Counted from the first letter of the stretch, positions 4,349 to 62,209 are shown. The stretch is DNA of 64,000 nt from Candidatus Omnitrophota bacterium (GCA_030695905.1 JAUYOL010000011.1:7887-71886), one strand, 5' to 3'. Notes: generated by a model from the letters alone, not told the origin. A program made the numbers and translations.

Positions 4349-4449
4349 TATTTTGCAAATTATATGTCGCCTTAATGGTATTACCATATACATATGAGTT
4401 TACACGATAATAATATCAATTCAAGTCGGATTCTCTTACTTTTTTATGC

Positions 4450-26517: not shown

Positions 26518-26537
26518 ATGTATTTCACCTATTTCAT

Positions 26538-26577
26538 CGCCCCGGTGACATGTGGTTTACTCCGCCACACCGGGGCG
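26538..26577 (-). other. GC-rich stem-loop in the argJ-argB intergenic spacer (10-bp perfect stem CGCCCCGGTG/CACCGGGGCG, 20-nt loop), no U-tract
   Basis: Inverted repeat read directly from sequence. It is followed on the mRNA by the argB SD AGGTGA and ATG. Confidence 0.55.
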
Positions 26578-26583
26578 GTGTAT

Positions 26584-42970: not shown

Positions 42971-44137
42971 TTATTCCGAGTAGATACGCGGGACGCGATT
43001 TGATATGCCGCAGATAAAATCATAGGCTATTGTGCCGGCAAGACGGGCCAATTGTTCTATGCGTATTTCGTGCCTGCCCTGTTTCCCTATTAAAACCACT
43101 TCGTCACCTACCTTAACGCCTCTTACATGGCCCACATCTATCATGGTCTGGTCCATGGTAACCTTGCCCACAACAGGCGCAAATTGTCCGCGGACAAGGA
43201 CTTGGGCTTTATTTGAAACTCCCCTATTATAGCCATCGGCATAGCCTATAGGCACAGTGGCCACCTTTGTGGGCCTCTGGCTGATGAATGTCCTGCCATA
43301 ACTTATTGAGCGTCCGGGAGGTATATCTTTTATAAACACAATTTTTGTCTTTAAAGACATGGCCGGCTTTAATTTAATGAGTTTTGGGAATGTGTGCTTA
43401 GGATACATGCCGTATATGATAAGGCCCGGGCGGACAAGATTAAGGTGTGATCTTTTAAAATCGACTGTAGCGATAGAGTTGGCCGCGTGCTTTAAAGGTA
43501 TCTTTATCCAGCTCTTCTCTATCGAGGCCAGCAGCCTTTCGAAGGACTCTATCTGGTAACTTGTAAAAAATTCGTCGCGGCCGGCGCTCGAAAAATGCGT
43601 GTAAATCCCTTCCATCGCTACGGTCTTTTCAGCCGCTATCTCTTTTACGAATGCAAGCGCGTCTTCATGCCATATACCGATACGGCCCATGCCCGTATCT
43701 ACCTTTATGTGCACTTTGATCTTTGGGTCGCCAGGCTCTTCCTGTTTTGCCAGTCTCTTTATTTCATTAAATATTTCGTCATTGCAAAGAGTTATAGCTA
43801 TATCGCGGTATTTGGCTATCTTTACTTCCTCGGGCAATATAGAGCCCAATATCAATATGGGCGTCTTTATACCATGGTCTCTAATGCGCACCGCCTCATC
43901 CGTAGTGGCAACGCCCAAATAATTAACGCCTATATTCTCAAGCACCCTGGCAATCTCCACGGTGCCATGCCCATAGGCGTTTGCTTTTACCACGGCCATT
44001 AACATTACATCTTTGCCGACAAGGCGTTTTACCTGCGTATAGTTATGCTCTATGGCGCCTAAGTCTACATCGGCCCATGTGGGACGATAACGCGCCCTGG
44101 TAACTCCGTTTCTTGTTTTTACGGGAATTGCGTTCAT
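42971..44137 (-). CDS. alr: Alanine racemase
   Basis: VVKANAYGHG PLP-Lys motif. The start was set to the ATG at 44137 that forms an ATGA overlap with the tsaB stop. The track start at 44155 is 6 codons upstream. Confidence 0.85.
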   Translation of the reverse strand: MNAIPVKTRNGVTRARYRPTWADVDLGAIEHNYTQVKRLVGKDVMLMAVVKANAYGHGTVEIARVLENIGVNYLGVATTDEAVRIRDHGIKTPILILGSILPEEVKIAKYRDIAITLCNDEIFNEIKRLAKQEEPGDPKIKVHIKVDTGMGRIGIWHEDALAFVKEIAAEKTVAMEGIYTHFSSAGRDEFFTSYQIESFERLLASIEKSWIKIPLKHAANSIATVDFKRSHLNLVRPGLIIYGMYPKHTFPKLIKLKPAMSLKTKIVFIKDIPPGRSISYGRTFISQRPTKVATVPIGYADGYNRGVSNKAQVLVRGQFAPVVGKVTMDQTMIDVGHVRGVKVGDEVVLIGKQGRHEIRIEQLARLAGTIAYDFICGISNRVPRIYSE

Positions 44138-44814
44138 CGGCCGGTCACATCGCATTCTTTAGAATATATATACATAGGCTCAAGGTCCTGTGCCTTAATA
44201 AATTTTTTCTTCTTAAAATCTTCTGCCGCCAAACGCGCCACAATTTCCGCTTTCGGATGATAATCTTTGAGAACCTTACCTCCCCTCCCGGAGGGGAAAT
44301 GGTTTTCCCCTCCGGGAGGGGAAATGGCGTCACCTAAAAACAAAACTTTATCATATTTTTCCAATTTTCTCAATAGATCATCGAGCGGCAAAAGCAGATA
44401 TTTTGATAATCTCTTTATTATAGACCCGTCCGATCTATACAGGCAGGCATAAACTTTATTTTTTCGCGCGTCCAACACGGGGCATATTATGCCTTTAAAC
44501 TTCCTGGCGTTCATAGCTATAACATCGAGCGTTGGCACGGCTATTACAGGTTTATTTAAAGCAAAGGCAAGCCCTTTCACAACTGTAACTCCTATGCGCA
44601 ATCCCGTAAACGAACCCGGGCCTACGCTTATCGCGAAACAATCTATCTCTTTTATTCTGATCTTCGCTTTTTTTAAGAGCTTATCTATCGTAGGCACCAG
44701 TAAAATGGAGTGCCTCATATCGGCCTTCTTATGAAATTTCGCTATCACCTTATCGGCCTTAAGCACCGCCAGGCTTAAATAATCCGTGGATGTATCTATA
44801 GCAAGTATTATCAT
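44134..44814 (-). CDS. tsaB: tRNA threonylcarbamoyladenosine biosynthesis protein TsaB
   Basis: YeaZ-like N-terminus MIILAIDTSTDYLSLAV...GPGSFTGLRIG. Confidence 0.85.
   Translation of the reverse strand: MIILAIDTSTDYLSLAVLKADKVIAKFHKKADMRHSILLVPTIDKLLKKAKIRIKEIDCFAISVGPGSFTGLRIGVTVVKGLAFALNKPVIAVPTLDVIAMNARKFKGIICPVLDARKNKVYACLYRSDGSIIKRLSKYLLLPLDDLLRKLEKYDKVLFLGDAISPPGGENHFPSGRGGKVLKDYHPKAEIVARLAAEDFKKKKFIKAQDLEPMYIYSKECDVTGR
44281..44328. repeat. Two tandem copies (~24-25 bp) of a GC-rich palindrome CCCCTCC(C/G)GGAGGGG-AAATGG, inserted in-frame in tsaB (encodes ISPPGGENHFPSGRGG)
   Basis: tcccctcccggaggggaaatggtt ttcccctccgggaggggaaatggc read directly. The GC content is far above that of the surrounding coding sequence. 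Confidence 0.75.
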
Positions 44815-48253: not shown

Positions 48254-49290
48254 ACTACTCCGGCCTGTTTTATCAGAAAAACCAGAAATACCATACTCAG
48301 GTTATGAGTTATATGCACCGTCATAGAAGATACCAGTGTACCTGTTTTTTCATATAGGAACGCCAACAAGATGCCCAGCGCCATTATGGGCAGAAATCCC
48401 ACTACATGCGAGTGTAGTGTAGCGAATATAGCCGCCGTTATCACCACAGACCATAGTACGCCTGTATATTTTTTTAAGGCATTGTACATGAAGCCCCTGA
48501 AGAATAGCTCTTCTACTATGGGTCCGAGTACAGCCGCGAAAAAACTCGAATACGTAAGGAATGCCACATCTTTTTCTTTTAAAAACATCTCTACCACAGG
48601 CTGTCTTTCGGGCACATATTTTGTTATGCTGATTATTATCGCGGTGACGGCCAATATTACCGCTAAAACCGGCAATAGCGCAATATATCCGACTATACCA
48701 TAAAACACATTTTTAAAAAAATTCTTGACCGAAAGCCCTAACGCCTCTAAATTCTCCTTATATTGAACGATAGAAAGATTTATTATAAAGACTACGGCCA
48801 ATATATCAAGGATCGTCGTATTGATTATCATCCTGATGTTATCCGATTTCAATATGGGAAAAATTCTTGCCCAGAACGCTTCCGCTATGATTAATATATA
48901 GCCGAAAAATAAAAAAAGAATGATAACCTTGCAAAGATCCCATATCGTCCATTTCGCGGCGGGCGGGCTTAAACTGCGTATGTCAAACTTTTTACTCAAT
49001 AACGACGAGAAGATGATAAAATCCAAAGACGTACCGAGCATCAGCATGGCCAGTATCAGCATCGTTGCCATGCCGAACAAAAGCATAAGCGGCCCATTCT
49101 TGCGCAGGGATTCTTCTATATCCGGCCTGCGGGCAAAAAGATCCTGGCTTAACTCCTGCCCGGCCTTAGCCTTTTTAACCTTCTCCGCCTTTTCGGGGCT
49201 TAAGAACATGATAGCGTTAAATAAAAGAACAAACACCAGTATAAGCAGATAGAGGCGCTCTTTATTGACAAAGTTTAATACTTTATTCAT
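48250..49290 (-). CDS. CPBP (CAAX/Abi-type) intramembrane metalloprotease
   Basis: Polytopic membrane protein with EELFFRG and the later FxxxH motifs. Confidence 0.75.
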   Translation of the reverse strand: MNKVLNFVNKERLYLLILVFVLLFNAIMFLSPEKAEKVKKAKAGQELSQDLFARRPDIEESLRKNGPLMLLFGMATMLILAMLMLGTSLDFIIFSSLLSKKFDIRSLSPPAAKWTIWDLCKVIILFLFFGYILIIAEAFWARIFPILKSDNIRMIINTTILDILAVVFIINLSIVQYKENLEALGLSVKNFFKNVFYGIVGYIALLPVLAVILAVTAIIISITKYVPERQPVVEMFLKEKDVAFLTYSSFFAAVLGPIVEELFFRGFMYNALKKYTGVLWSVVITAAIFATLHSHVVGFLPIMALGILLAFLYEKTGTLVSSMTVHITHNLSMVFLVFLIKQAGVV

Positions 49291-50657
49291 CCGGTCACGC
49301 CGTATGTTCTCATTCTAAAAGACGCTCCAAGCGCCTGGGCAGCGGCCTGGCACCCTTTTATATCCACTTCCGGCAGACTAAGGCATGTGATTTCTGTCTC
49401 GATCTTATTTTCCACACAATCTTTGATAAACTTTACCACCGCCTTGTATGTCTTTTCGCCAAATTCAGGTTTACAGATTTTATTGTATAATTTTTCATTA
49501 TCCGTGTTTAAGCTTATCGATACCCTGTCTATCAATCCCGCGAGTTCTTTCGCTATCGGCCTGCCGTTTATAAGGTCGCCGTGGCCGTTTGTGACAAGCC
49601 TTATAACAGCGCCTTTGGCCTTTAAATCATCCGCAACTGCTTTAACAATATCGAGCCTTGCCGTAGGTTCTCCATAGCCACAAAATACTATCTCCTTGTA
49701 CTTTTTCGGATCAGACCCTACCGCTTTCAGCACCTCTGTCAATGTCGGTTCTCTATCCAGTTTAAGATTATGGCCTTTGACAAACGCCGTCTGGGCCCTT
49801 ACGCAGAAATAACAGTTGTTTGTGCATCTGTTGGTAATGTTAAGATACAGGGAATCTCTTATTTCATACGCTATCTTGGAATATTCCTCATCGATCCCTA
49901 AAGAAAATAAGCCGTTGGCATTATGTGTGGTAATTCTCGCTATATCATCCTTTGTAAGTCCGGTTATTTTAGACCATTCATCGACTAAATAAGTAAGATA
50001 AGACGGTTCATTGCGTTTACCCCTCAGGCCTTCGGGTGATAAAAATGGCGCGTCCGTCTCCAATAAAATTTTTTCCGTCGGAACTGTCCTTGCCGACTCT
50101 CTTAGAGCCTGGGCTTTCTTGAAAGTGAGATTGCAGGTGAATGAAATATATAGCCCCATATCAAGACACGCTTTCAAAAGCTCACCGCTTCCGGAGAAAC
50201 AGTGGATGACGCCTCTTATCTTGGGACCGTATTCTTTCAGAATGCTTATGGTATCGTCGTCCGCTTCCCGTGAGTGGATTATAAGAGGCAGCTTTACCTC
50301 CTGCGCGAGCTGAATGAATCTTTTGAATATTACTTTCTGGGTTTCTTTGGATGAAAGGTTTCTGTAATAATCAAGGCCCACCTCTCCAATGGCAACCACC
50401 TTCTTATTTTTAGCCAGAGCCTTTATATCATCCACTACTTTGTCGGTAACTTTACTTGCGTCATGCGGATGTACTCCGACGGAAGCGTAGACAATATCAT
50501 ATTTGTCCGCAAGCTCCACGCACCGGCGGCTTCCCTCTATGGAGCTGCCTACATTAATGATTCGCGCAACTGCGGCCTTAACGGCCCTATCCAAAACGGC
50601 CCCCCGATCCGCGTCAAAATCCTTAAAATCGAGGTGGCAATGTGTGTCTATTAGCAT
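49287..50657 (-). CDS. TatD-family metal-dependent hydrolase fused to a C-terminal radical SAM domain
   Basis: N-terminus LIDTHCHLD...GEVGLDY...HCFSG (TatD). C-terminal half has NITNRCTNNCYFC (CxxxCxxC) plus GYGEP. Confidence 0.75.
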   Translation of the reverse strand: MLIDTHCHLDFKDFDADRGAVLDRAVKAAVARIINVGSSIEGSRRCVELADKYDIVYASVGVHPHDASKVTDKVVDDIKALAKNKKVVAIGEVGLDYYRNLSSKETQKVIFKRFIQLAQEVKLPLIIHSREADDDTISILKEYGPKIRGVIHCFSGSGELLKACLDMGLYISFTCNLTFKKAQALRESARTVPTEKILLETDAPFLSPEGLRGKRNEPSYLTYLVDEWSKITGLTKDDIARITTHNANGLFSLGIDEEYSKIAYEIRDSLYLNITNRCTNNCYFCVRAQTAFVKGHNLKLDREPTLTEVLKAVGSDPKKYKEIVFCGYGEPTARLDIVKAVADDLKAKGAVIRLVTNGHGDLINGRPIAKELAGLIDRVSISLNTDNEKLYNKICKPEFGEKTYKAVVKFIKDCVENKIETEITCLSLPEVDIKGCQAAAQALGASFRMRTYGVTG

Positions 50658-50702: not shown

Positions 50703-50738
50703 GCAAAAACAAGTAGGGCACCTTTAAAGGTGCCCTAC
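50703..50738 (-). terminator. Rho-independent terminator of the giant gene (13-bp stem GTAGGGCACCTTT/AAAGGTGCCCTAC plus T-run)
   Basis: Perfect palindrome 50713-50738, followed on the minus strand by TTGTTTTTG. Confidence 0.75.
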
Positions 50739-50750
50739 ATTATGTATCCA

Positions 50751-50785
50751 TAACCGTCTTACCCACCGGGTGGGTAAGACGGTTA
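50751..50785. repeat. 35-bp palindromic element taaccgtcttacccacc-g-ggtgggtaagacggtta, 10 nt downstream of the giant-gene stop
   Basis: Read directly. A second copy at 60629-60659 differs by compensatory substitutions, and related copies sit in tsaB and in gene 1. Confidence 0.7.
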
Positions 50786-50794
50786 ATTTGTACG

Positions 50795-53700
50795 TTACGC
50801 CGAGATAAGGGTTGCGGCGACTTTCTCGTAATCAGGCTTGTCATAAGCTTGAGCGGGCCTGTAAGCAAGAATACCGCGTATAAGCTTACCTATCTCATTC
50901 TTGGCGATAGCCATGATGTAATCGTCAATCGCTATCTTTTCAGCAAATGTAAAGTGCGATTTTAAGTAGAAACTCAACAACCTGTATACAGACGAACTTA
51001 CGTCTATCTTTTCATCTACTGCGCGCATAAGTAACATTACAACATATGTATCCTGCTGGAATTGCTTCCTGTAGGGGTCTTTAGCACCCTTTGCGGTCAA
51101 TAGCTCATTCCTGTTAGCTATCATAAACCGTATGCCGGCATCTTTAAGTGCCTGATAATGCCTTTCTTCAAACCTTCCATCCGGCAGCTCATTCGGAAGC
51201 AGAACTATTGTTCTGTCCTTTACAGCGTCCGGATTAGCAAGGACACTGTGAATAAATTCATCTGCATCGCGTCCGCTTACACTATCGAGATTAAACCTGT
51301 CGCCATAATTTATCTGAGCTTCTTTTAGCTCGCCGTTTGCAAAGAATTCAGAAGTAACAAGCAGTGTGAAGCGGGTATCGGCTTGAACCGGGATCTGAAC
51401 GCCCGCCTCGTTGGCAAGTTGAATTGCGGCGTTGATCTCAATTTCAGCTGACCTATTCATTTCCGCTACTGTAAGCCTATCGGGTACATGACGCAATGAC
51501 ACAGACTGTGGCCGTTCATCTGCTGTCGTTGTTGCTGACTGCGTAAGCACGGGCTCCACGGCAAGTTTAATAGTTTCCGATCTTTTGCCAAGCACGACAG
51601 GTTGTTTATTAAAAGGAAGGATCGACTCAACAAGCGCTTTTGTATTGCTCGCGCCCAACTTATCGAATATGGTTGCAAATTCTTCATATAATGCTTTGTC
51701 AACAGCGGCACGTACATGAGGTGGTAAATTCCAAAGCATATCCTTGAATGGCGCCGGAAGTTCCTTCGCGGCATCCTTTAATGTCCCTTTTAGCCCCTTA
51801 GGCATAAAATCACCCATTATTTCGGTAATGATCTCTGCGCGGGACTTCCCGGATTGAACGGCAGCAAGTTCTCTATACATGGTGGTTTTCTTTCCATCAT
51901 CTTTAGCGGCCGCTATAGCAAGATCCGCATTCCCAAAGGCCAGATTCCACATAGGCCTGAATTTTTTGGAAAAATTTTCATCCCTTGCCATCAAAGCCTC
52001 AAGCCATTTCGCCATAGCTTCGCCGACTTCCGGCATCATATCGGCAACTATACCGAGCTCTATCTTCTGGTATTCGGTGGCAAGATGCACTTCTCCCACA
52101 TCGCCTTGTTTCATCTTACCAAAATCTTCCTTTTCAAGAGTAGAAGCGCCGTGCTGAACAAACACAGGAATACCGATTCTTTCCCAGTATCTAACATGGC
52201 GCCGATAGATACCAAAGTCTATTTCTCCACCTACGCCATGCATGGTACCTGTCTGAAGGCTTATCTTGCTTGGCCCGACCAGGCCCTCGGCTTCGGCCAT
52301 TGCCAGAATGGTCTTTGCCAGCGTAACCGATCCCAACACAGTGCTTGGGTTATTCTTATGCTTCGGGTTATCTATGTGGCGCTCTTCTATGCCTATTGAG
52401 ACAGGCATTGTCAGTCCTAACTCTTCCTCCAATGCCCTGATATAACGAATAAAACGCATTGTGATCAAAATGCTTGGCCGGTGCATATTCTTGTATAGTC
52501 TTTCTAAATGCTCTTGATGCACTGGAGTTAAAGATTTAATGTCGCCCATCTCTATCTCGTCCACCAGGCGTCGCCAGAGGGACTTTCTGCCATTGTCATC
52601 AAGCCCGTAAAGGAGATAGACGTTCTGATCCAAATATTCACGCACAAAAGCATTCTCAAGTTGTGTAATCTTGTTCAGGGTCCCCTCGTCAACCAATGTG
52701 GAAGGATCAAGATCGATATTGTATACACCCGCCAGCATGGATTTACGAATAAGCTCTTCTATAGCTTTTAATTCTTTTTCTCTCTCATCACCGCCTTTAT
52801 CATATTTCTCCTTGTTTACCTGATAATGGTCGCCCTGGGCAAAGATGAGGCCTTCATAACCCTGCTTAATGGCCGCCGCAATACTGACAGCAGTGAACTC
52901 AGCCATATCCTGCGCCGAGTAGCGCATCTCTGAGCGGGCTAATTCCAATAACAGAACGCCGACATTCTTGTCTTTGGCAGCGCGAAATAACTGCTGGTAT
53001 TGATGGTAAACATCGGTCCTTCCGTTAACAGCGGGGACTGTTATTTTACCCCACTTCCCGTCTTTTTTGGCGGCATAGAAATCATTGATCGAGGCGAGCT
53101 TCAGATTGAAACTGATCGCCGCTTCGCGCAATATTCTTTGAGCGGCAGCTTTCACGTCCGGATTCTCGCTGAAGGCCGATTCAAACGCCAGATAATCAAC
53201 TGTCTGGGAGTGGAATTTAGCCGCATCGAGAATAATCACCGAGTCCGCCGTCACTTTCAGGCTATCTCCAATATTACGCAGGAGTTCAAAAATATCCCTG
53301 GCTCTCGTCGCTGTTGTCACTGCAGGTACCACTGCCGCCATAAACGCGGATTGCGCTGTGGATTTAGTATTTTCATACGCCAACGGGACATCAGAATATT
53401 TTATTGTAGAAGCATCGGAATCCAGCACCAAAAGATTCTCAGGAGCAGGATGATTCCGGAAGAGTTCATATGCCTGCGAATTGGTTATTTTCGTGTTCAC
53501 AAGAGAAACTACTCTAAGACTTGGAAGGCCGTATAATGGTGCCAGATCAGCGACATCGGTATCATTAAGGTCTAACGAAAACACGCTGCGCTCTGGATAA
53601 CTAAGCAAGCGATCCGCGGGAAGCTCATTACCGCGAACAAACTGCTGCAATACTCTAAGCTGTTCGTCAAAACTGGGCGCGGCCGATATGTTTATCTCGG

Positions 53701-56700
53701 GCAGTTTATTGAGCGACTCGCCGAGGATATTCTTCCTTATTCCGGTCATGCCTTTTTCTACGGTCAGTGCCATATGGATCAGATCGATAATCCTCCTGCC
53801 GAATATGAGGTTGCCGTCCTTGTCAGGCCTGGCTCCTTCGACAAGAGCCTTGAATGCCTCTCCATATTTTTCATCCCGGCTGAGTTTTACAAGCAGCGCA
53901 TCATCGGCCTTTATTGCCAAATTTCCCGCCACAACCATATTAAGCATTTTGCGTGTGATATATATGTTGTGCGCTGTTCCAACTAACTCTGTTAACGAAA
54001 CCGGACCCTTTGACGAAGGGAACAGGGCCACCGCACCGGCCGTTCTATTCTTAACATATCTATAGGATTCTGTCGTTAACAAGGTCTTGGGCGAGTCTAA
54101 TGAATCTATTATCTCATCGGCATCAGGCCTGGCAATTACACAGACATTGGGCCTTCTCATATTAAAAGCTGATTCCGATTGAGAATTTATCGCATCTATT
54201 GCTGCATTAATATCATAACCGCTGGGTCTTTTAACCTTTTCGGAAGGCAAAAGGTCTCTAAGGTTTTCTTTCGGCCCAATAACGCCCAGGACGTTCTTTC
54301 CGCAAAGTTCAGCTTCTGTAAAAATACCGCTATCTTTCAAATCCACTTTACCCATTGCTTCCGATACAGGCCTTGCCCTCATGGTCCTTTGTATATCCAC
54401 AACGGTCCTTGAGCCTTTATCGGCGGCAATACACACACCGCCGTCCGAAATGACTCTTTTTCTTTTGGCTTCTTCTGTAATCAACGGAACGGCTGTAGCA
54501 ATAGCCAGTTCTCCCGTGATAATGTCAATACTATCCTTATTAGGCGCCCTTGACCTTCCGCTGTATCCGGTATCTTCCAGAAAAAGATTTTTATCTCTTT
54601 CTAAGCCTAATTCAACAGCAAGCGCCTCAGCCACAAAGTCTGCTATGCCAAGCTCGGCAAGCAGAGGGTTACCATTGACATCTGTTTTTACATTGGCAAA
54701 CTTTGCCGCCAAAAATTTGTTTCTTTTGAGGATTTTTTGTAGTAGTTGATCCTTTGCCGATACTCTGAACCCCTCCGACACAAATACGGCACTAGCGCCA
54801 TACTCATTCATTCTCGATCTAACCGCTTCGGCTATATCATATAAAGAAACGATAACGCTACCATTAGGACTTACTGACCATTCTGGAACCGCCGCAACGC
54901 TGATAGGCGACTCTAAAGCCCCTGAAACGGTCAAATAGCCCATATCGCGGCCCATCATCTGGAACACGACACATTTCCAGCTGCCGGGCTCGGGTGATGC
55001 GCGCCGTGAAAATTCGTTTGCATTCTGCCCTGCGCTGTCTGCGCCCATCGGGTATACCATCGTATCACCGTCTATCGTCTTGGGAAGGACTAGCACCATC
55101 ATGTCATCTACCTTTGATTCTTTAAATTTCTTAGCTATCTTTGCTGCCTCGCCCATATGGTCATTCCCGCCGACAAAAACCACTGTCTTGCAATAACCCT
55201 GTAAATTCGCCATTGCCTGAAGCGTTAACTCTTCGTTCAGCTTGACCCTCGACGTGCCTTGCGCGGCGCCGGGCTTGTTAAGCAGCTCATCCGCCATTTT
55301 TTGATCCACCCATACACGGTTTTCCGCAAATTCCCCGGATGACTTCACCAGCGTATCCAGGCCGAACCTTTGGATTTCAAGCGTCATGCCAAATCGGGCA
55401 AGAGCCTTTGCCAGTAACGCGAAATAATTATTTACACCCGGCGCTTCTCCGCCGCTTATCATTATTATCACGCGTTTTTCCGGAGGAACTTCACTCGGCT
55501 TGAGCCACGTCTTTACTCTTGTCATCGCAGCTACAGGCTGGTCAACCGTAGGCACAATCACAGGCTTTAATATGTCTTCGATATTATCCTGCTTGCTCCG
55601 AACGGCCTTGACATGCTCTTTAATGAATTGCAGTGAAGCTGCATAATCTTTTTTAAACGCTTCGACCCCGTCTTCCTGCAACTTTGTAGTAATTGCATTT
55701 ATGTCTATATCACATTTGGACAAGGTATACATTACCTCTTGTGCCTGAACCGCTGTCATGTCATTTCTCGGCTCGGCTTCTACGCTGGTAGCCATTATCG
55801 AGGCATGCAATGTATCTTTCGGCATAGTATTAACTGTATTTTGCAAAGGGAGATTTGAAACATACATAAGCGGTGAAAATCTGGCACCATCAGCATAAGC
55901 TTCGTTTGATTTTATCTCCGTAGAAGCCCACAGAAGTCTTTGGGGCGCGGCGCCCATATTCAGAAGCTGTTCCCATAGTCGATGTCGATATAAAAATACG
56001 TTATTAGAAACATCGGATGCAAGCACCGTGTTAGCTATAGCGGCTTTTCCTATAAGGCTCTCCAAAATTGTTATGTTAGCCGCTGTCTCTTTAGGGTTAT
56101 CCGTTCTTGCTTTTTCCTTTGCGATTGCCTTCCTTATCTGCTCATCAGCCGCATCCGGCTTACAGTTCACCCTGCTCACGAAGAAACTCGCAACGGACTG
56201 TATGTCATAGATAGGTTTACGATCGGTAACTCTCCGCTCCAAGCCTCTCATATACGCCCTTGCGACATCTTCATAATTGGAAACCCCGAAAAGAAGAGTT
56301 ACATTGACATTGATTCCATTGTAGGTAAGTTCCTCTACTGCCTTTACGCCCTCGGGAGTAGCGGGAACCTTCACCATGACGTTTGGCATTCCAATCGCGT
56401 TAACTAATCGCATAGCCTCATTAACAGTATTCTGTACATCATACGCATATTTCGGGTTTACTTCTATCGATATATATCCGTCAAGATGCTTTGTCTTATT
56501 AAAGACGGGAAACCATTCCACAGCCATCTGTTTCATATACAATATACATACATAATCGTATATCTGTTCGGGCGTCCAGCCTTCGGCTATACCATGCTGT
56601 ATTTCTTTGTCGAACATACCTGCTTTTATGGCATTGTTAATTATCGTAAGATTTGTGGTTTGACCGGTGACGCCTTTTTTCTTAAAAAACCTGATCTCTT

Positions 56701-59700
56701 CAGGCGTAAACGCGCCATCCGCCCATACGCTCTGTCCTTTTTTACGTAGCAAGGAAATACCTTTACCGGCAAGGAGCCTGGCTGTCTTTACGATACCATC
56801 CTTATCAAAACCGTGTTTTTTATACAGCTCCGCGGGCGTTCCCGATTCGCCGTATTTGTCTATACCAAGGTTTCTGACAAATTGCGGTTTTGCGTTCCGA
56901 CGGGCGAGGATATTATCTATCTTATCTCCGAGTAGTCCCGGCAATGCGTCTATCACGCTTATAATATTTCTGCCACGCTCAATGAGTTTTTCAAAATCCC
57001 TCTTGTTAGCTTCATCAGCCGTTATGGATTTGAGCTGTGTTACATTCACAACCTCTACTGAAAGGCCGTATTTTTCTGAAAGATCCTTGGCCGCATTTAT
57101 CGCTTCAGCTGTTACTACACCGGATGAAACTATTACAATGTCACGGCTTTGGCTCTTTTTTCTATTTTTCCCGGACTCGGTATCAAATATCTTATAGAAA
57201 CCGCGCCTTGCGCCTTCCTGCCAACCTTCGGGTTTATTTTGTATAACCGGAGTATCAAGCCTCGCCGGCCTTATGTAATGTATGCCGCCTTTCTTCTTTG
57301 CAACGTCATATATACCTCTAAACAATACCCTCTGTTCTTCTGCGTCAGCACCTTCATAAGTTTGAACCCCCGGAAGCGCACCAAGAACACCAAGCGAATG
57401 CGCATCCTGGTGAGTTCTGCCATCCGGCCCGGTCGCTAAACCACCGTGCGTTCCAACGATTATTATCGGAAGGTTTGCATTTAATATGGCGTTAAGCTGG
57501 TCGACCATCCTCGTAGTAAATATGCTAAATGTGCCAATAACCGGAATCTTGCCGCACGCAGCAAGGCCTGCGGCAAATGAAACCATATGTGCCTCGCGTA
57601 TACCAACCGGTATATATCTGCCTAAAAGATTATCAGCTGAAAATGTCCCGAATAACTTCGCAAAACCGTCAAATTTATTAGAACCCATCAAGTCTGCCGA
57701 CATTGCAACCACATCAATATTATCCGCGCCGATAAGTGTGAGTTCGTGGCCTGTGGCAGTGCGAGTAGCAACATTTTTGCCCTCAGGATAACCTTTCTCT
57801 AATTCCTGTATAGCTTTTTGAACTGTTGCGCTATTTGTTATCTGACGAAGCGCCTCTCTTCTCGCCCCTACACGCGCTTTATTTTCTTTTTCTATACGCG
57901 CCTTCGTGTCGGCACCTAATGATATTTTCCTGATTAGATCTTCTACAAAAGCCTTTACAGCTTCCCTATGATTTTCGGGAGTGTACCTGCCATTGCTTAA
58001 AACGGCTAAATCCGCGTCTATAATAGCGAGCGCTTCTTTAACTTCGGCTTCTTTAGGCGCTTCACCGTGTTTTGCCATTCCCGGCAGGCCCGCACCTTTC
58101 GTAGTTTTCATTATAACTATAGCCGGCTTACCGTTACCAAGACTTTTCTTTGCTTCCTGAGTAGCTCTCATTACATCTTCTATGTCTTCGCCATTTGCCC
58201 TGACTACATTCCATCCTCTTGCTTCCCAGAGCTTAATTTGGCCTTCGTAGTCAACATCAACATCAGTAACTTTGTTATCTATCTGATATCCATTCCAGTC
58301 AAGAAACGCTACTATCTTAAGCCCCTTTGCCGCCGCTTCTCTATACGTTTCATCTTGCTTCTGTTTTAAAATAGCTCCTGCATGCCTTCCGGCCTCATCT
58401 ACCTGGCCTTCTTCGGTTTCACCATCACCAATTATGCAGTATGTTATATAGTCCTTGTCGTCCATTACTGCTGCAGTCGCCATAGCTACCGCGGCGGAAA
58501 AAGCTACTCCTAAAGGGCCTCCTGAAAACTCAACACCGATCGTCTTCGCCATGTCCGGATGGCCCTGTAAGTCTGATCCGAGCTTTCTCAATGTTTCAAG
58601 GAATTCTTCCACATCCTCGGTCTTCAATTTGCCCTGTTTCTTAAGATCCGCTATACGTTTTGCAAAATACTGTGCGCGCGCCAATGCCGCATATAGGCCG
58701 GGCGCAGCATGGCCTTTTGAAAGGACAAACCTGTCCCTATATTCCCAGTTCGGATCACTTGGATCGTATCTCATGATCCTTTCACCATTAGCATTCGTTC
58801 CAAAATATAGCGCAACGACCGCTTTTAACATAGAAAGCGAACCACCCGGATGGCCTGAACCGGCCTTGTAGATCATACTTACTACATCGCGCTCGAGTAT
58901 CCTTGTTAAAAATTTCAGATCCTGTATTAATCCGGGGCTATTTAGGCGAACACCTGCCGCGAATAAGCACTCGGATATCGCGGCTTCATCCAATAAATTT
59001 AAATCCTTTAATTTCGCCAACACGCCTTCTTCGGTAATGTCATTACGCACACGGTCAACGAGTATTTTCAACACTTTTGTTTGCTCTTCACGCGTTAATT
59101 TGGCAACAGCCGGTATTTCAATTAGCCTTTTCCATACATCTTTTGCCCTGTCATCACTTATCCCGATATCCGGCATATTTTCGTTCATTACTGCGGCTGC
59201 CGCAACAGGAGCTTCGAAATCAGTATCCGTCCTGTACTTTCTGCTGTCGGGACCAACAGAAATATCACCGTACGGCGCCATTGCTTGTGTAATTCGATAG
59301 GCAAGGGTAGCAAATTCATTGTAGGTGAGCTCGCCTACTATGCGCTTTCCGCTCTCCATGTGAGTAAAATTCAAAGTTTTCTTCCCTTGCCAACTATCCC
59401 CACCCTGGCCATCCCTCCTCAGCGTCCTCCACTGCCTATATTTATCCCAATCGCCTTCAAATGCCTCCTTTACGACAGCCAGATGGAAGCTTCTTTCTAA
59501 GTGCTCATGCGCCAATAATTGATCTTTTACGGTTGTAAATCCCCCCATGCCATATAACCACACACTTGTCTCTGTTGTACCCGTTTTGTCTTTATGCCAG
59601 GGGGCAACGGCATATATCCACCCACTTTCAACACCAAAGTGCGCGGCTTGTGAGGACAGCTGTCTTAGAAAATCGCTATACCCGTAGTGCAATTCGGGTC

Positions 59701-60445
59701 CGACATTTGCTCTACCCAGCAAGCCTGAAAAAAGTTCTTGTTCAGATAAACCGGTTACTTCAATAAGCTTCTCAAAGATAGCCAAAAAATTCCCGGCGGA
59801 TTTTTTATTATCTGCAACAAACCAATTAATCTTATTAGACTTGTCCACTACGAGGAATTTCTCGAATGCCTTTGGGTTTTTTCCGACCTCGTAAAATAAC
59901 GCGTCAAGCATCGCGTTAAGAACCCTGTGATCCGCGCAATCCATAGGGCCGGCATCTCTAACAGCTGCGGCTGTCGGAACTTCCCGCGATTTCGCCGAAG
60001 GCGTATTGTCTTTCGGGTATACGCTCAAGGTTTGTTTGGCAGGATCGTATTCTATAACATACCTTACATTATTTATGACCGCTTTCAGCGTTATAACACC
60101 ATTGAGCCCTGCTTCGGCTTCATGGCGGAATATTCTACCGTTACGTATATTGTCAATTGCTCTAACAACTTCGGGGGATACGCCCTTTAGCTCTTTCAAT
60201 GTTTGAGGAGTTATCGGCTGCTTCGCCTTTCTCATCGCCGCAAATAATTCCATGATAAGTATCGATATGCCGCGCGTGCCCTGGATGTCTTTGCCCAACA
60301 TATCGTCACTTTTTATGAGCGTAGCGAGTGTGTCAGAATTCCTCGCGCCTAATAACTCCTGCGCGAACCCTGTATCAAAAAGAAATGTATTGCAAATGAA
60401 TGCTATCAACACCACCAAAGAAGCTACACGATTTACTCTACTCAT
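50795..60445 (-). CDS. Giant secreted multi-enzyme fusion protein (~3216 aa). Signal peptide, N-terminal unknown region, split-type transketolase (TPP, Pyr and C domains), long-form transaldolase, phosphofructokinase (PKTIDGD type), unknown/LRR-like region, class II fructose/tagatose-bisphosphate aldolase, C-terminal unknown ~350 aa
   Basis: Single uninterrupted ORF. Start is ATG 60445 (SD AGGAGG 7 nt upstream); the track uses GTG 60451. Tkt motifs: GSGHPGGSLSM..ALYF, DRFVLSKGHAAPGLYA, LQGHPD, GDGETEEG, GIREAHM, GPDGRTHQ. Tal motifs: VWADGAF, GQTTNLTI, MVKVPATPEG..NVNVTLLFG, LWASTE..VNTMP. Pfk motifs: ISGGEAPGVN, VGGNDHMG, LPKTIDGD, MGR. Fba motifs: AQGDHYQ, GTMHGV, FVQHGAS. Approximate nt spans: Tkt 59060-56850, Tal 56780-55530, Pfk 55480-54300, Fba 53100-51870. 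Confidence 0.9.
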   Translation of the reverse strand: MSRVNRVASLVVLIAFICNTFLFDTGFAQELLGARNSDTLATLIKSDDMLGKDIQGTRGISILIMELFAAMRKAKQPITPQTLKELKGVSPEVVRAIDNIRNGRIFRHEAEAGLNGVITLKAVINNVRYVIEYDPAKQTLSVYPKDNTPSAKSREVPTAAAVRDAGPMDCADHRVLNAMLDALFYEVGKNPKAFEKFLVVDKSNKINWFVADNKKSAGNFLAIFEKLIEVTGLSEQELFSGLLGRANVGPELHYGYSDFLRQLSSQAAHFGVESGWIYAVAPWHKDKTGTTETSVWLYGMGGFTTVKDQLLAHEHLERSFHLAVVKEAFEGDWDKYRQWRTLRRDGQGGDSWQGKKTLNFTHMESGKRIVGELTYNEFATLAYRITQAMAPYGDISVGPDSRKYRTDTDFEAPVAAAAVMNENMPDIGISDDRAKDVWKRLIEIPAVAKLTREEQTKVLKILVDRVRNDITEEGVLAKLKDLNLLDEAAISECLFAAGVRLNSPGLIQDLKFLTRILERDVVSMIYKAGSGHPGGSLSMLKAVVALYFGTNANGERIMRYDPSDPNWEYRDRFVLSKGHAAPGLYAALARAQYFAKRIADLKKQGKLKTEDVEEFLETLRKLGSDLQGHPDMAKTIGVEFSGGPLGVAFSAAVAMATAAVMDDKDYITYCIIGDGETEEGQVDEAGRHAGAILKQKQDETYREAAAKGLKIVAFLDWNGYQIDNKVTDVDVDYEGQIKLWEARGWNVVRANGEDIEDVMRATQEAKKSLGNGKPAIVIMKTTKGAGLPGMAKHGEAPKEAEVKEALAIIDADLAVLSNGRYTPENHREAVKAFVEDLIRKISLGADTKARIEKENKARVGARREALRQITNSATVQKAIQELEKGYPEGKNVATRTATGHELTLIGADNIDVVAMSADLMGSNKFDGFAKLFGTFSADNLLGRYIPVGIREAHMVSFAAGLAACGKIPVIGTFSIFTTRMVDQLNAILNANLPIIIVGTHGGLATGPDGRTHQDAHSLGVLGALPGVQTYEGADAEEQRVLFRGIYDVAKKKGGIHYIRPARLDTPVIQNKPEGWQEGARRGFYKIFDTESGKNRKKSQSRDIVIVSSGVVTAEAINAAKDLSEKYGLSVEVVNVTQLKSITADEANKRDFEKLIERGRNIISVIDALPGLLGDKIDNILARRNAKPQFVRNLGIDKYGESGTPAELYKKHGFDKDGIVKTARLLAGKGISLLRKKGQSVWADGAFTPEEIRFFKKKGVTGQTTNLTIINNAIKAGMFDKEIQHGIAEGWTPEQIYDYVCILYMKQMAVEWFPVFNKTKHLDGYISIEVNPKYAYDVQNTVNEAMRLVNAIGMPNVMVKVPATPEGVKAVEELTYNGINVNVTLLFGVSNYEDVARAYMRGLERRVTDRKPIYDIQSVASFFVSRVNCKPDAADEQIRKAIAKEKARTDNPKETAANITILESLIGKAAIANTVLASDVSNNVFLYRHRLWEQLLNMGAAPQRLLWASTEIKSNEAYADGARFSPLMYVSNLPLQNTVNTMPKDTLHASIMATSVEAEPRNDMTAVQAQEVMYTLSKCDIDINAITTKLQEDGVEAFKKDYAASLQFIKEHVKAVRSKQDNIEDILKPVIVPTVDQPVAAMTRVKTWLKPSEVPPEKRVIIMISGGEAPGVNNYFALLAKALARFGMTLEIQRFGLDTLVKSSGEFAENRVWVDQKMADELLNKPGAAQGTSRVKLNEELTLQAMANLQGYCKTVVFVGGNDHMGEAAKIAKKFKESKVDDMMVLVLPKTIDGDTMVYPMGADSAGQNANEFSRRASPEPGSWKCVVFQMMGRDMGYLTVSGALESPISVAAVPEWSVSPNGSVIVSLYDIAEAVRSRMNEYGASAVFVSEGFRVSAKDQLLQKILKRNKFLAAKFANVKTDVNGNPLLAELGIADFVAEALAVELGLERDKNLFLEDTGYSGRSRAPNKDSIDIITGELAIATAVPLITEEAKRKRVISDGGVCIAADKGSRTVVDIQRTMRARPVSEAMGKVDLKDSGIFTEAELCGKNVLGVIGPKENLRDLLPSEKVKRPSGYDINAAIDAINSQSESAFNMRRPNVCVIARPDADEIIDSLDSPKTLLTTESYRYVKNRTAGAVALFPSSKGPVSLTELVGTAHNIYITRKMLNMVVAGNLAIKADDALLVKLSRDEKYGEAFKALVEGARPDKDGNLIFGRRIIDLIHMALTVEKGMTGIRKNILGESLNKLPEINISAAPSFDEQLRVLQQFVRGNELPADRLLSYPERSVFSLDLNDTDVADLAPLYGLPSLRVVSLVNTKITNSQAYELFRNHPAPENLLVLDSDASTIKYSDVPLAYENTKSTAQSAFMAAVVPAVTTATRARDIFELLRNIGDSLKVTADSVIILDAAKFHSQTVDYLAFESAFSENPDVKAAAQRILREAAISFNLKLASINDFYAAKKDGKWGKITVPAVNGRTDVYHQYQQLFRAAKDKNVGVLLLELARSEMRYSAQDMAEFTAVSIAAAIKQGYEGLIFAQGDHYQVNKEKYDKGGDEREKELKAIEELIRKSMLAGVYNIDLDPSTLVDEGTLNKITQLENAFVREYLDQNVYLLYGLDDNGRKSLWRRLVDEIEMGDIKSLTPVHQEHLERLYKNMHRPSILITMRFIRYIRALEEELGLTMPVSIGIEERHIDNPKHKNNPSTVLGSVTLAKTILAMAEAEGLVGPSKISLQTGTMHGVGGEIDFGIYRRHVRYWERIGIPVFVQHGASTLEKEDFGKMKQGDVGEVHLATEYQKIELGIVADMMPEVGEAMAKWLEALMARDENFSKKFRPMWNLAFGNADLAIAAAKDDGKKTTMYRELAAVQSGKSRAEIITEIMGDFMPKGLKGTLKDAAKELPAPFKDMLWNLPPHVRAAVDKALYEEFATIFDKLGASNTKALVESILPFNKQPVVLGKRSETIKLAVEPVLTQSATTTADERPQSVSLRHVPDRLTVAEMNRSAEIEINAAIQLANEAGVQIPVQADTRFTLLVTSEFFANGELKEAQINYGDRFNLDSVSGRDADEFIHSVLANPDAVKDRTIVLLPNELPDGRFEERHYQALKDAGIRFMIANRNELLTAKGAKDPYRKQFQQDTYVVMLLMRAVDEKIDVSSSVYRLLSFYLKSHFTFAEKIAIDDYIMAIAKNEIGKLIRGILAYRPAQAYDKPDYEKVAATLISA

Positions 60446-60500
60446 TGCCACTCCTCCTGTTTATGTTTCATGACGAACTTTTTAATCTTTTTTACTTTCC

Positions 60501-60530
60501 AAAAAAAACGCCTGGCAAAACTTTGCCAAG
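60501..60530 (-). promoter_or_regulatory. Terminator-like hairpin plus U8 inside the ~120-nt 5' leader of the giant gene (possible attenuator)
   Basis: Minus strand CUUGGCAAAGUUUUGCCAGG CG UUUUUUUU, located between the predicted TSS and the SD. Confidence 0.35.
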
Positions 60531-60571
60531 CATTTAAAATTTGTTCCGGACTTTTTTAAAAACTTGTTATT

Positions 60572-60599
60572 AGTTTATCACGCGAAAAATGTTTGTCAA
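60572..60599 (-). promoter_or_regulatory. Sigma70-like promoter TTGACA-N16-TAAACT (TGn extended -10) for the giant gene
   Basis: Minus strand ccTTGACAaacatttttcgcgTGaTAAACTaat, about 150 nt upstream of the ATG. Confidence 0.45.
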
Positions 60600-60628
60600 G
60601 GAAAAATAGCTAACTTTTTGAAACCTTT

Positions 60629-60659
60629 ACCGTTTTACCCACCCGGTGGGTAAAACGGT
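60629..60659. repeat. 31-bp palindromic element accgttttacccacc-c-ggtgggtaaaacggt, abutting the metG stop codon. Second copy of the 50751-50785 element
   Basis: Perfect inverted repeat. It differs from the first copy by a paired c/t and g/a change that preserves the stem. Confidence 0.7.
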
Positions 60660-62209
60660 TAGGTTTCGATGCGGGGAAATAGTGGCGCGGACTTTTTAAC
60701 TTGGGCGCCTGCTTTAAGTAAACCCCATGATTTCACGTCGGAGAATTTTACCTTTGACGGGTCGTCTTCCATGCCCAATTGGACCATTATATTCTTCGAT
60801 GTGGACGGCATGAATGGATAGACGGATATAGAAACTATTCTCAATGCTTCAAGAAGGCTGTAAATCAGTATTGCCAGTTCGTCTGCCTTCCTTTCCTTTG
60901 CCAGCGCCCACGGCTTCGCGTCCTCGATAAGTTTATTGGCCTTATTAACAACTTCCCATATCTTTGTAAGCGCTCCCACGAAATCTAATTGCGGTATAGT
61001 CTTTTCTAAATCACCCGCCAGGCCGGAAGCTTTATCCTGCAAATCTTTTACTATTCCCGCCTCGAGCCTGTCCCCTGAGACAGCCGGAACTTTTCCCTCA
61101 AAATATTTTTCCACCATAGTAAGCGTCCGGTTAAGTAAGTTGCCCAGATCGTTGGCAAGGTCGCTATTGTACCTTGATATTAACGCCTCTTCATTAAAAG
61201 CTCCGTCCAAACCAAATGGGACTTCGCGCAGCAAAAAATATCTATAGGTATCTATCCCATATCTTTTTATCAGGTCAAGCGGGTCGACAACATTGCCCTT
61301 TGACTTCGACATCTTTTCGCCTTTTATGACCCACCACCCGTGCGCGAATATCGTCTTCGGAGGCGTCAATCCGAGCGCATGAAGCATTATGGGCCAATAC
61401 ACGGCGTGATGGCGCAATATATCCTTACCTATAACATGGAAATCCGCCGGCCAATATTTTTTAAGCTTTGCCTGATCATCGGGATAGCCTATGCCTGAAA
61501 TATAATTTATCAGCGCGTCAAACCATACATAAGTGACAAAATTTTTATCGAACGGCACTTCTATGCCCCATGACATGCGGCTCTTGGAGCGCGATATGCA
61601 TAGGTCCAAAAGAGGTTCTTTCAAAAACCCCAGCACTTCATTGCGCCTAAAGTCGGGCTTTATGAAATCCGGATTTGATTTTATATAATCTATGAGCCAA
61701 TCTTGATATTCGGAGATCTTAAAGAAATAATTTTCTTCGTCCAGCTTCTCCAAATGCCGCTTGCAGTCGGGGCATAACCCGTCATCGGCCTGGGCCTCGG
61801 ACCAGAATGTCTCGCACGGCGTGCAAAACCACCCTTTATACACCTTCTTATATATCTTGCCGTCTTTGTGTAATTTTTCCAACACGGCCTGGACCGCCTT
61901 AATGTGAACGCTATCCGTGGTCCTTATGAAATAATCATACTTTATGCCGAGCGAGTCCCACAGGCTCCTAAAGACAGGCACTATCTCGTCTACAAATTTC
62001 TTCTCCTCGCCTTTTTTAAATCCGCGCGCAAGCGTAGCCTTCTCTATCTTCTCGCCATGTTCATCGGTGCCGGTCATGAAGAATACATCATCACCGCGCA
62101 GCCTTAAGAATCTCGCCACCGTATCACAGGCTATCTGGGTATACGAGTGGCCTATATGAGGTTTTGAGTTTACGTAATATAGTGGGGTAGTTATATAGAA
62201 TTTGTTCAT
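60659..62209 (-). CDS. metG: Methionyl-tRNA synthetase
   Basis: HIGH motif (PHIGHSYT), KMSKS, and CPDC zinc knuckle. 516 aa. Confidence 0.95.
   Translation of the reverse strand: MNKFYITTPLYYVNSKPHIGHSYTQIACDTVARFLRLRGDDVFFMTGTDEHGEKIEKATLARGFKKGEEKKFVDEIVPVFRSLWDSLGIKYDYFIRTTDSVHIKAVQAVLEKLHKDGKIYKKVYKGWFCTPCETFWSEAQADDGLCPDCKRHLEKLDEENYFFKISEYQDWLIDYIKSNPDFIKPDFRRNEVLGFLKEPLLDLCISRSKSRMSWGIEVPFDKNFVTYVWFDALINYISGIGYPDDQAKLKKYWPADFHVIGKDILRHHAVYWPIMLHALGLTPPKTIFAHGWWVIKGEKMSKSKGNVVDPLDLIKRYGIDTYRYFLLREVPFGLDGAFNEEALISRYNSDLANDLGNLLNRTLTMVEKYFEGKVPAVSGDRLEAGIVKDLQDKASGLAGDLEKTIPQLDFVGALTKIWEVVNKANKLIEDAKPWALAKERKADELAILIYSLLEALRIVSISVYPFMPSTSKNIMVQLGMEDDPSKVKFSDVKSWGLLKAGAQVKKSAPLFPRIET

Follow-up and report, generated by a model that had tools for sequence, protein, structure and literature searches.

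Repetitive extragenic palindromic (REP) sequences, together with bacterial interspersed mosaic elements (BIME) and the REP doublets known as REPINs, are found in Enterobacteria and Pseudomonas, are mobilised by REP-associated tyrosine transposases (RAYT), and comprise sequences of about 35 nucleotides (nt) that form hairpins and are repeated within one genome. REP hairpins shield the upstream mRNA from 3' exonucleases, and REPs lying within ~15 nt of a stop codon reportedly impede termination and reduce expression of the upstream gene. The bacteria of the uncultured phylum Omnitrophota are ultra-small, possibly predatory and noted for giant genes. The two preprints on Omnitrophota giant genes that were searched make no mention of such a dispersed palindromic repeat. 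The subject of this work is a stretch of 64,000 nt from a Candidatus Omnitrophota bacterium (GCA_030695905.1 JAUYOL010000011.1:7887-71886, referred to below as the window), in which two palindromes, A and B, bracket a giant gene between positions 50,751 and 60,659. The reading favoured here, with a probability of roughly 0.6, is that A and B are copies of a lineage-specific, REP-like family of dispersed palindromes of ~35 nt that form stable hairpins in 3' untranslated regions (3' UTRs).

Two further kinds of element are close enough to be compared. [quoted passage not shown] A and B share with REPs the length, the hairpin and the repetition within one genome. They also share with them a presence that varies between lineages at orthologous sites (the related contig L013 has both sites empty, and L018 lacks B) and a location in the 3' UTR between the stop codon and the real terminator, within 15 nt of the stop.

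Palindromes A and B and related copies in the window

Palindrome A (50751-50785, minus strand) is an intact element of 35 nt with a 17+1+17 arrangement and perfect arms, TAACCGTCTTACCCACC-G-GGTGGGTAAGACGGTTA. It lies 9 nt beyond the stop codon of the giant open reading frame (ORF; stop at 50795-50797) and 12 nt ahead of a canonical terminator hairpin. An earlier note on this DNA, made from the sequence alone, had rightly described a 35-bp palindrome after this stop, with a spacing of 10 nt that is corrected here to 9. Palindrome B (60627-60661, minus strand) is also an intact 35-nt element, with a perfect 15+1+15 core at 60629-60659 and, taken as a 35-mer, a single T/T mismatch (60628/60660); flanking bases lengthen its stem to 60620-60667. 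This core corresponds to the 31-bp copy that was said to abut the metG stop, but the TAA (60659-60661, minus strand) is in fact part of the outer arm of B.

The best match between the two palindromes is that of A on the plus strand to B on the minus strand, with 32/35 identical positions, so the copies are inverted relative to each other. A mirrored change distinguishes them, C50758/G50778 in A being equivalent to T60634/A60654 in B, and the hairpin is kept through it (through four such changes if the tsaB unit described below is counted). To say that compensatory changes are all that separates the copies is accurate for this C/T and G/A pair, but not for the unpaired centre (G in A, C in B, plus strand) nor for the terminal mismatch of B. 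Mirrored changes in palindromes can arise without selection, through arm-to-arm template switching (quasipalindrome correction) or copying via a single-strand hairpin intermediate, and therefore a single mirrored event is not proof of selection. The structural selection proposed earlier is plausible but was over-read from one mirrored change, to which three are added if the tsaB unit is homologous.

The palindromes do not have a chance origin: 100 dinucleotide shuffles gave no core match and none reached the observed 8 arm matches. As RNA, both fold into hairpins of 16 bp with a 3-nt loop and -22 to -27 kcal/mol (A alone -26 to -27; B with the outer stem from flanking bases -31 to -34), with folding z-scores of -5.4 to -7.6. 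Covariance model scores were 62 bits for A and 60.5 bits for B. When Rfam 15 was run over the window only tRNA was identified, the A and B sites giving just sub-threshold generic hairpins (16-29 bits against cut-offs of 40-140). The sequence is that of a metagenome-assembled genome (MAG), a type of source in which a chance resemblance or an assembly artefact might be suspected; this explanation is hardly credible in view of the shuffles, of the position of both elements inside a long contig of 89,056 bp with sensible placement relative to stops and terminators, and of the coding copies, which keep their frames open.

A third, decayed member, copy C (2563-2596, minus strand), is located inside the second large ORF of the window, with the in-frame reading VPSYPPGGEKVI. 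One of its arms is exact (GGTGGGTAAGACGGTA) and the other is degraded, the hairpin being lost (folding z=0). As read from the sequence, an intact element in this frame would bring TAA at both ends, and both are altered in C. It contains the third exact occurrence of the arm ACCGTYTTACCCACC (2580-2594), and a search of the 64 kb with the arm 15-mer, allowing 3 mismatches, identified A, B and C only. The three copies have no fixed motif in common beside the stem. An 8-mer, GTACAAAT / ATTTGTAC, adjoins A (50786-50793) and C (2594-2601) in opposite orientation relative to the arm, and for this reason it was rejected as an extension of the element; it may be coincidental or reflect weak target preference.

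A related double palindrome (44273-44328, minus strand) lies in frame inside the essential gene tsaB (44134-44814) as a tandem 2 x TTTCCCCTCC-S-GGAGGGGAAA/AGG. It is built like A and B, with AACC/GGTT as the outer and CCCNCC-S-GGNGGG as the inner part and three double-sided changes, and the doublet resembles a REP doublet such as those of REPINs. The 56-nt segment can fold as one perfect 22-bp hairpin of -47.5 to -48.5 kcal/mol. The palindromic segment encodes ISPPGGENHFPSGRGGK, 21 residues (63 nt) in a variable loop of TsaB where the protein of a relative (L011) has 15 unrelated residues (45 nt), 18 nt shorter; the frame in the window stays open. A covariance model built from A and B only scored the tsaB unit at 17.6 bits (E=0.018) and copy C at 15.6 bits (E=0.07), with nothing convincing beyond these two in the window. 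The generalised core CCCNCCSGGNGGG (CCCNCC-S-GGNGGG) has 5 matches in 64 kb, all of them at the A, B, C and tsaB sites, against 0.0 in shuffles. The window contains in total two intact extragenic copies, one decayed intragenic copy and one related intragenic doublet, and the suggestion of a repeated hairpin-forming family is thereby borne out. The in-frame readings of copy C and of the tsaB insert would parallel those of RPEs, although RPEs have ~100-150 bp and belong to defined families with conserved peptides whereas the elements described here have 35 nt.

The metG-tatD junction in relatives

In the window the gene order on the minus strand is metG, the giant ORF and a gene for a TatD-DNase/radical-SAM fusion (abbreviated tatD below). 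Gene order is kept in relatives whose MetG is 79-83% identical, most of which have no gene at all at the site of the giant gene; in six relatives, on the L011/L012, L015, L016/L017 and P0010 contigs, metG abuts or overlaps the TatD-radical-SAM gene. Translational coupling of the latter to metG is seen in most relatives, the two genes either overlapping by 4-7 nt or lying 2-10 nt apart. Exceptions are L013 and L014, where the junction is occupied by a different giant gene (11763-18218 in L013) of 2151 residues with ATP-grasp_5, Succ_CoA_lig and AlaDh_PNT domains, and L018, where an ORF begins at the same site (11719-11909) and runs past the contig end.

The window, L013 and L018 have in common a promoter, AAAAAGTTAGCT...TTGAC...TAAACT/TATAAT, and an ORF whose N-terminal signal peptide precedes an NSDxLAPPL-like motif. 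Further features common to the window and L013 are a leader hairpin that has a T-run, a 3' terminator hairpin and the tatD promoter. Neither palindrome is present in the homologous leader and 3' UTR of L013; in L018, B is missing at the homologous position and the site of A falls beyond the contig end. Stop and terminator are separated by 56 nt in the window and by 20 nt in L013, and the 36 nt of difference come to approximately one 35-nt element. At its left junction (GAAACC|TAACCG) B has replaced the last metG codon and the native stop, since metG of L018 ends in ...GAGACCACATAG. At the right junction (...AAAACG|GTAAAGGTTTC) the motif GTAAAGGTTTC is already present in L013, and the reuse of this pre-existing sequence accounts for the terminal mismatch of B.

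The shared promoter, leader and terminator indicate that the giant-gene locus predates the split of these lineages and, given that L013 has the homologous leader and terminator with no palindromes, that the 3' UTRs were in place before A and B entered them. This comparison shows A and B to be apparent secondary insertions, later than the giant-gene locus. The junction itself is a hotspot for different giant multi-enzyme genes.

The earlier note also considered the palindromes as possible traces left by the arrival of the giant gene, and this is contradicted by L013, which carries a giant gene between metG and tatD with homologous flanks and neither palindrome. The corresponding explanation would make A and B the ends of a mobile unit carrying the giant gene, or the sites of its recombination, comparable to IS200/IS605 subterminal hairpins, attC-like or Xer/dif-like sites. 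It agrees with the presence of similar hairpins, inverted by the central base, on both sides of a gene that most relatives lack, and with the hairpin or palindromic sites that bracket a cargo gene in IS200/IS605 ends (palindrome-associated transposable elements, PATEs), attC and Xer/pdif systems. It is nevertheless very improbable, because the bracket does not coincide with an inserted unit: the leader and promoter inside it and the terminator and tatD promoter outside it are all shared with the palindrome-free L013, whose giant ORF is different. No transposase, integrase or other recombinase was identified in the window. The GC content of the giant gene is that of its flanks and gives no sign of a recent arrival.

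The geometry is also a misfit. Integron attC sites are imperfect palindromes of 57-141 nt with R''/R' cores (RYYYAAC / GTTRRRY), extrahelical bases and intI nearby. An attC identity was discarded for A and B, which have 35 nt in perfect pairing, carry GTTRRRY at one of four arm ends (B, plus strand, GTTAGGT) and are found in a window devoid of integrase. Xer/dif-type sites, such as those of integrative mobile elements exploiting Xer (IMEX) and pdif modules, have two 11-bp arms and a central region of 6-8 bp, and this identity was discarded as well, the centre of A and B being 1 nt and their arms 17 nt. Two more candidates were rejected. CCSGG, the sequence at the apex, is not avoided in the window as a restriction site (96 observed, 69 expected). 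DNA uptake sequences are 10-12-mers present genome-wide at about 1 per kb, and inverted pairs of such sequences would not account for an arm 15-mer found in 64 kb just at A, B and C.

The giant ORF (50795-60451, minus strand) encodes 3218 residues with transketolase, transaldolase and phosphofructokinase domains, a signal-peptide-like N-terminus and about 1300 residues without a family match. The protein matches MDP3790847.1 ("transaldolase family protein"), and among 5.8 billion proteins no full-length homologue was identified, the search returning just the protein itself and one match covering 5%. On one side metG (60659-62209, minus strand) encodes 516 residues, 100% identical to MDP3790848.1, and has its last codon and stop inside the B hairpin. 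On the other side the TatD-DNase/radical-SAM fusion gene (49287-50657, minus strand) is conserved across these Omnitrophota (11563-12927 in L011). The second large ORF, which hosts copy C (2-4399, minus strand), encodes more than 1466 residues and continues past the window edge. Its N-terminal domain is common to P0123 and P0124 (50-53% identity), its C-terminal region has no family match, and it also presents a low-complexity linker, a transmembrane-like segment and HEAT-like repeats. The rest of the window comprises housekeeping biosynthesis genes.

Hairpins, terminators and the giant-gene promoter

The palindromes had been considered possible terminators, and this is not what their surroundings indicate. 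Reading along the minus strand, UGGAUACAU comes after A and AAAGGUUUCAAAAAG after B, with no U-run in either case, and each palindrome has a separate canonical hairpin with a T-run downstream. The intrinsic terminator of the giant gene (50704-50738, minus strand) is formed by the hairpin GTAGGGCACC-TTTAAA-GGTGCCCTAC followed by TTGTTTTTG, and its position is conserved in L013. Downstream of B there is a hairpin with a T-run (60498-60535, minus strand; AAATGCTTGGCAAAGTTTTGCCAGGCGTTT TTTTTGG), also conserved in L013, where its counterpart lies at about 11700-11735 and differs in the loop. The terminator scan called both (50738-50713, 12 nt past A, and 60535-60506, ~90 nt past B) and neither palindrome.

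Of the ~15 intergenic gaps of at least 30 nt in the window, the A/B motif was identified in two, the remaining ones having unique-sequence hairpins with T-runs or nothing. Ubiquity at gene ends, the result that would have made the motif a generic terminator according to the earlier note, was thus not observed. A and B are therefore not generic terminators: they lack a U-run, canonical terminators follow them and other gene ends have unique hairpins. They resemble intrinsic terminators and pneumococcal SPRITE elements in being GC-rich stable hairpins at the 3' end of genes, unlike which they have no U-run and share their sequence between sites, the other terminators of the window being unique. 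One more stable hairpin, also devoid of a T-run (CGCCCCGGUG...CACCGGGGCG; 26518-26583, minus strand), separates the gene for ArgJ from that for an amino-acid kinase, and its sequence bears no relation to the A/B family.

The best sigma-70-like promoter predicted for the giant gene (60572-60599, minus strand) is TTGACA-16-TAAACT, TG-extended, and is located ~28 nt downstream of B; its -35 (60599-60594) and -10 are conserved in L013 and L018. The distance of about 150 nt between B and the promoter given before is imprecise, the best -35 being at ~28 nt from B and the start codon at ~175 nt. The hairpin at 60498-60535 sits between this predicted promoter (60599-60572) and the start codon (60451), and it is either the metG terminator or an attenuator in the giant-gene leader. 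If it were a real metG terminator, the true promoter of the giant gene may sit elsewhere.

These positions invite a second explanation, in which A and B would be locus-specific cis-elements that insulate the transcription unit of the giant gene, wedged as it is into an operon in which metG and tatD once overlapped, either stopping or pausing read-through (of metG transcripts into the giant-gene promoter and of giant-gene transcripts into tatD) or setting the stability of mRNA 3' ends. Both intact copies bracket one accessory gene in a conserved syntenic block, an arrangement that would happen by chance for any single gene in a few percent of cases; B and the giant-gene promoter, whose -35 lies downstream of it, are ~28 nt apart; and the hairpins are very stable. 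This explanation is unlikely all the same, as L013 has no palindromes with equal locus architecture, promoter and terminators, canonical terminators are already downstream of each, with no U-run in the palindromes, and a locus-specific device does not predict related copies in unrelated coding regions.

The perfect two-fold symmetry and the near-identical sequence on either side of one gene could also correspond to operators in duplex DNA, which a dimeric protein would bind to regulate or organise the locus. Such a role is quite improbable. The arms of 17 bp around a 1-bp centre are far longer than typical operator half-sites, A is past a stop codon and far from any promoter, and a protein that reads two half-sites independently gives no reason to expect the mirrored C/T and G/A change. 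Coding sequences harbour decayed and variant copies, and there is no adjacent regulator gene.

Under the favoured reading of A and B as REP-like dispersed copies, the elements arrived independently, once the giant-gene locus existed, into the two short non-coding spacers that the giant gene had made in a housekeeping operon otherwise tightly packed. B entered the last metG codons, where it supplies the stop codon, and A the gap that separates the stop of the giant gene from the terminator. Further copies are tolerated in frame, C in the linker of the second giant ORF and the related doublet in the variable loop of TsaB. A and B would be transcribed within the giant-gene and metG mRNAs as 16-bp hairpins located 0-9 nt past the stop and upstream of the true terminators. 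By analogy with enterobacterial REPs, these hairpins most likely block 3'-to-5' exonucleases and, lying less than a ribosome footprint from the stop, may also weaken termination and lower expression of the upstream gene. They may instead be simply tolerated selfish DNA.

Possible spread of the palindromes and significance in Omnitrophota

The collections scanned comprised 185,579 species genomes, Joint Genome Institute (JGI) metagenomes and viral contigs, the source MAG being in neither the genome nor the metagenome set. The exact core TTACCCACCNGGTGGGTAA had 2 unrelated matches in the species genomes and 8 in the JGI metagenomes, none of them with the ACGGT outer arms, and none in the viral contigs. 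Single half-site matches in viral contigs (n=63) were rejected, being below a rough chance estimate and none of them palindromic. Two contigs of metagenome Ga0164295 (L003 14-32 and L004 129-147) contain an identical apical palindrome of 19 nt, TTACCCACC-S-GGTGGGTAA, with different outer arms; mutually homologous, non-coding or ORF-poor and eukaryote-like in their repeats, these contigs were judged unrelated to the family. The syntenic DNA of relatives, 69 kb in all, contains no tight palindrome whose arms exceed 13 nt at a complementarity of 80% or more. A lineage-specific family is the best reading of these searches and of the copies in the window.

Dispersal would have taken place through a hairpin-recognising enzyme acting in trans (a RAYT or an IS200/IS605-type Y1 transposase) or through recombination. 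Several observations weigh against this account of a dispersed REP-like family. The window ORFs include no Y1_Tnp, RAYT, transposase or integrase, the 64 kb representing ~5% or less of the genome, and only two copies in it are intact. A and B are perfect, whereas classical REPs are imperfect, and no conserved flanking tetranucleotide of the GTAG type is present at A, B or C; copies inside coding sequences, rare for REPs, and the phylum itself are further differences. There is no unambiguous target-site duplication at the palindromes, the terminal TA...TA belonging to the palindrome itself. The homologues P0123 and P0124 cease to align ~60 residues before copy C. Loss of A and B from L013 and L018, instead of their gain in the lineage of the window, would also explain the distribution, although it is less parsimonious. 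Finally, two random drops into the gaps of the window, weighted by length, would flank some single gene ~2.5-4% of the time, as both intact copies do, and the giant gene in particular ~1-2% of the time (by arithmetic). This chance of 1-4% leaves room for a locus-specific role. A neutral account of the same placement is that the giant gene made the only sizeable non-coding spacers among overlapping essential genes, and that insertions would survive there; the positions of copy C in a variable linker and of the doublet in the tsaB loop fit this view.

A stronger version, which is tentative and doubtful as it stands, is that of an ultra-small mobile element made of a hairpin only (35 nt, no internal sequence) that is actively colonising this Omnitrophota genome. 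Like MITEs, it would be non-autonomous and hairpin-forming, with a 3'-UTR preference and with TA...TA termini compatible with a TA target; unlike them, it is under the MITE range of 50-500 bp, has arms alone with no internal sequence between inverted repeats, and any target-site duplication is indistinguishable from the palindrome. If this were true, the element would enter at stop codons (replacing, in one case, that of the essential gene metG) and in coding sequences by means of a hairpin-recognising enzyme, and variants that lose the TAA would persist as in-frame inserts (PPGGE, in tsaB and in a giant protein). It would then be the first REP/RPE-like system in the phylum and might be tied to giant-gene plasticity; each of the three A-type copies touches a giant gene.

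The best-supported conclusion is that one 64-kb window contains what appears to be a new sequence family of short, dispersed, REP-like palindromes in a phylum without such a description. The palindromes are not evidence for the route by which the giant gene arrived. The spot between metG and tatD hosts different giant multi-enzyme genes according to the lineage, behind a conserved promoter and signal peptide. The placement of the hairpins 0-9 nt past stop codons, with the metG stop supplied by one of them, makes hairpin control of termination and mRNA decay testable outside Proteobacteria. If the family proves abundant genome-wide, no dispersed palindromic repeat would have been described in Omnitrophota before it, and it would serve as a marker of recent genome rearrangement in these organisms.

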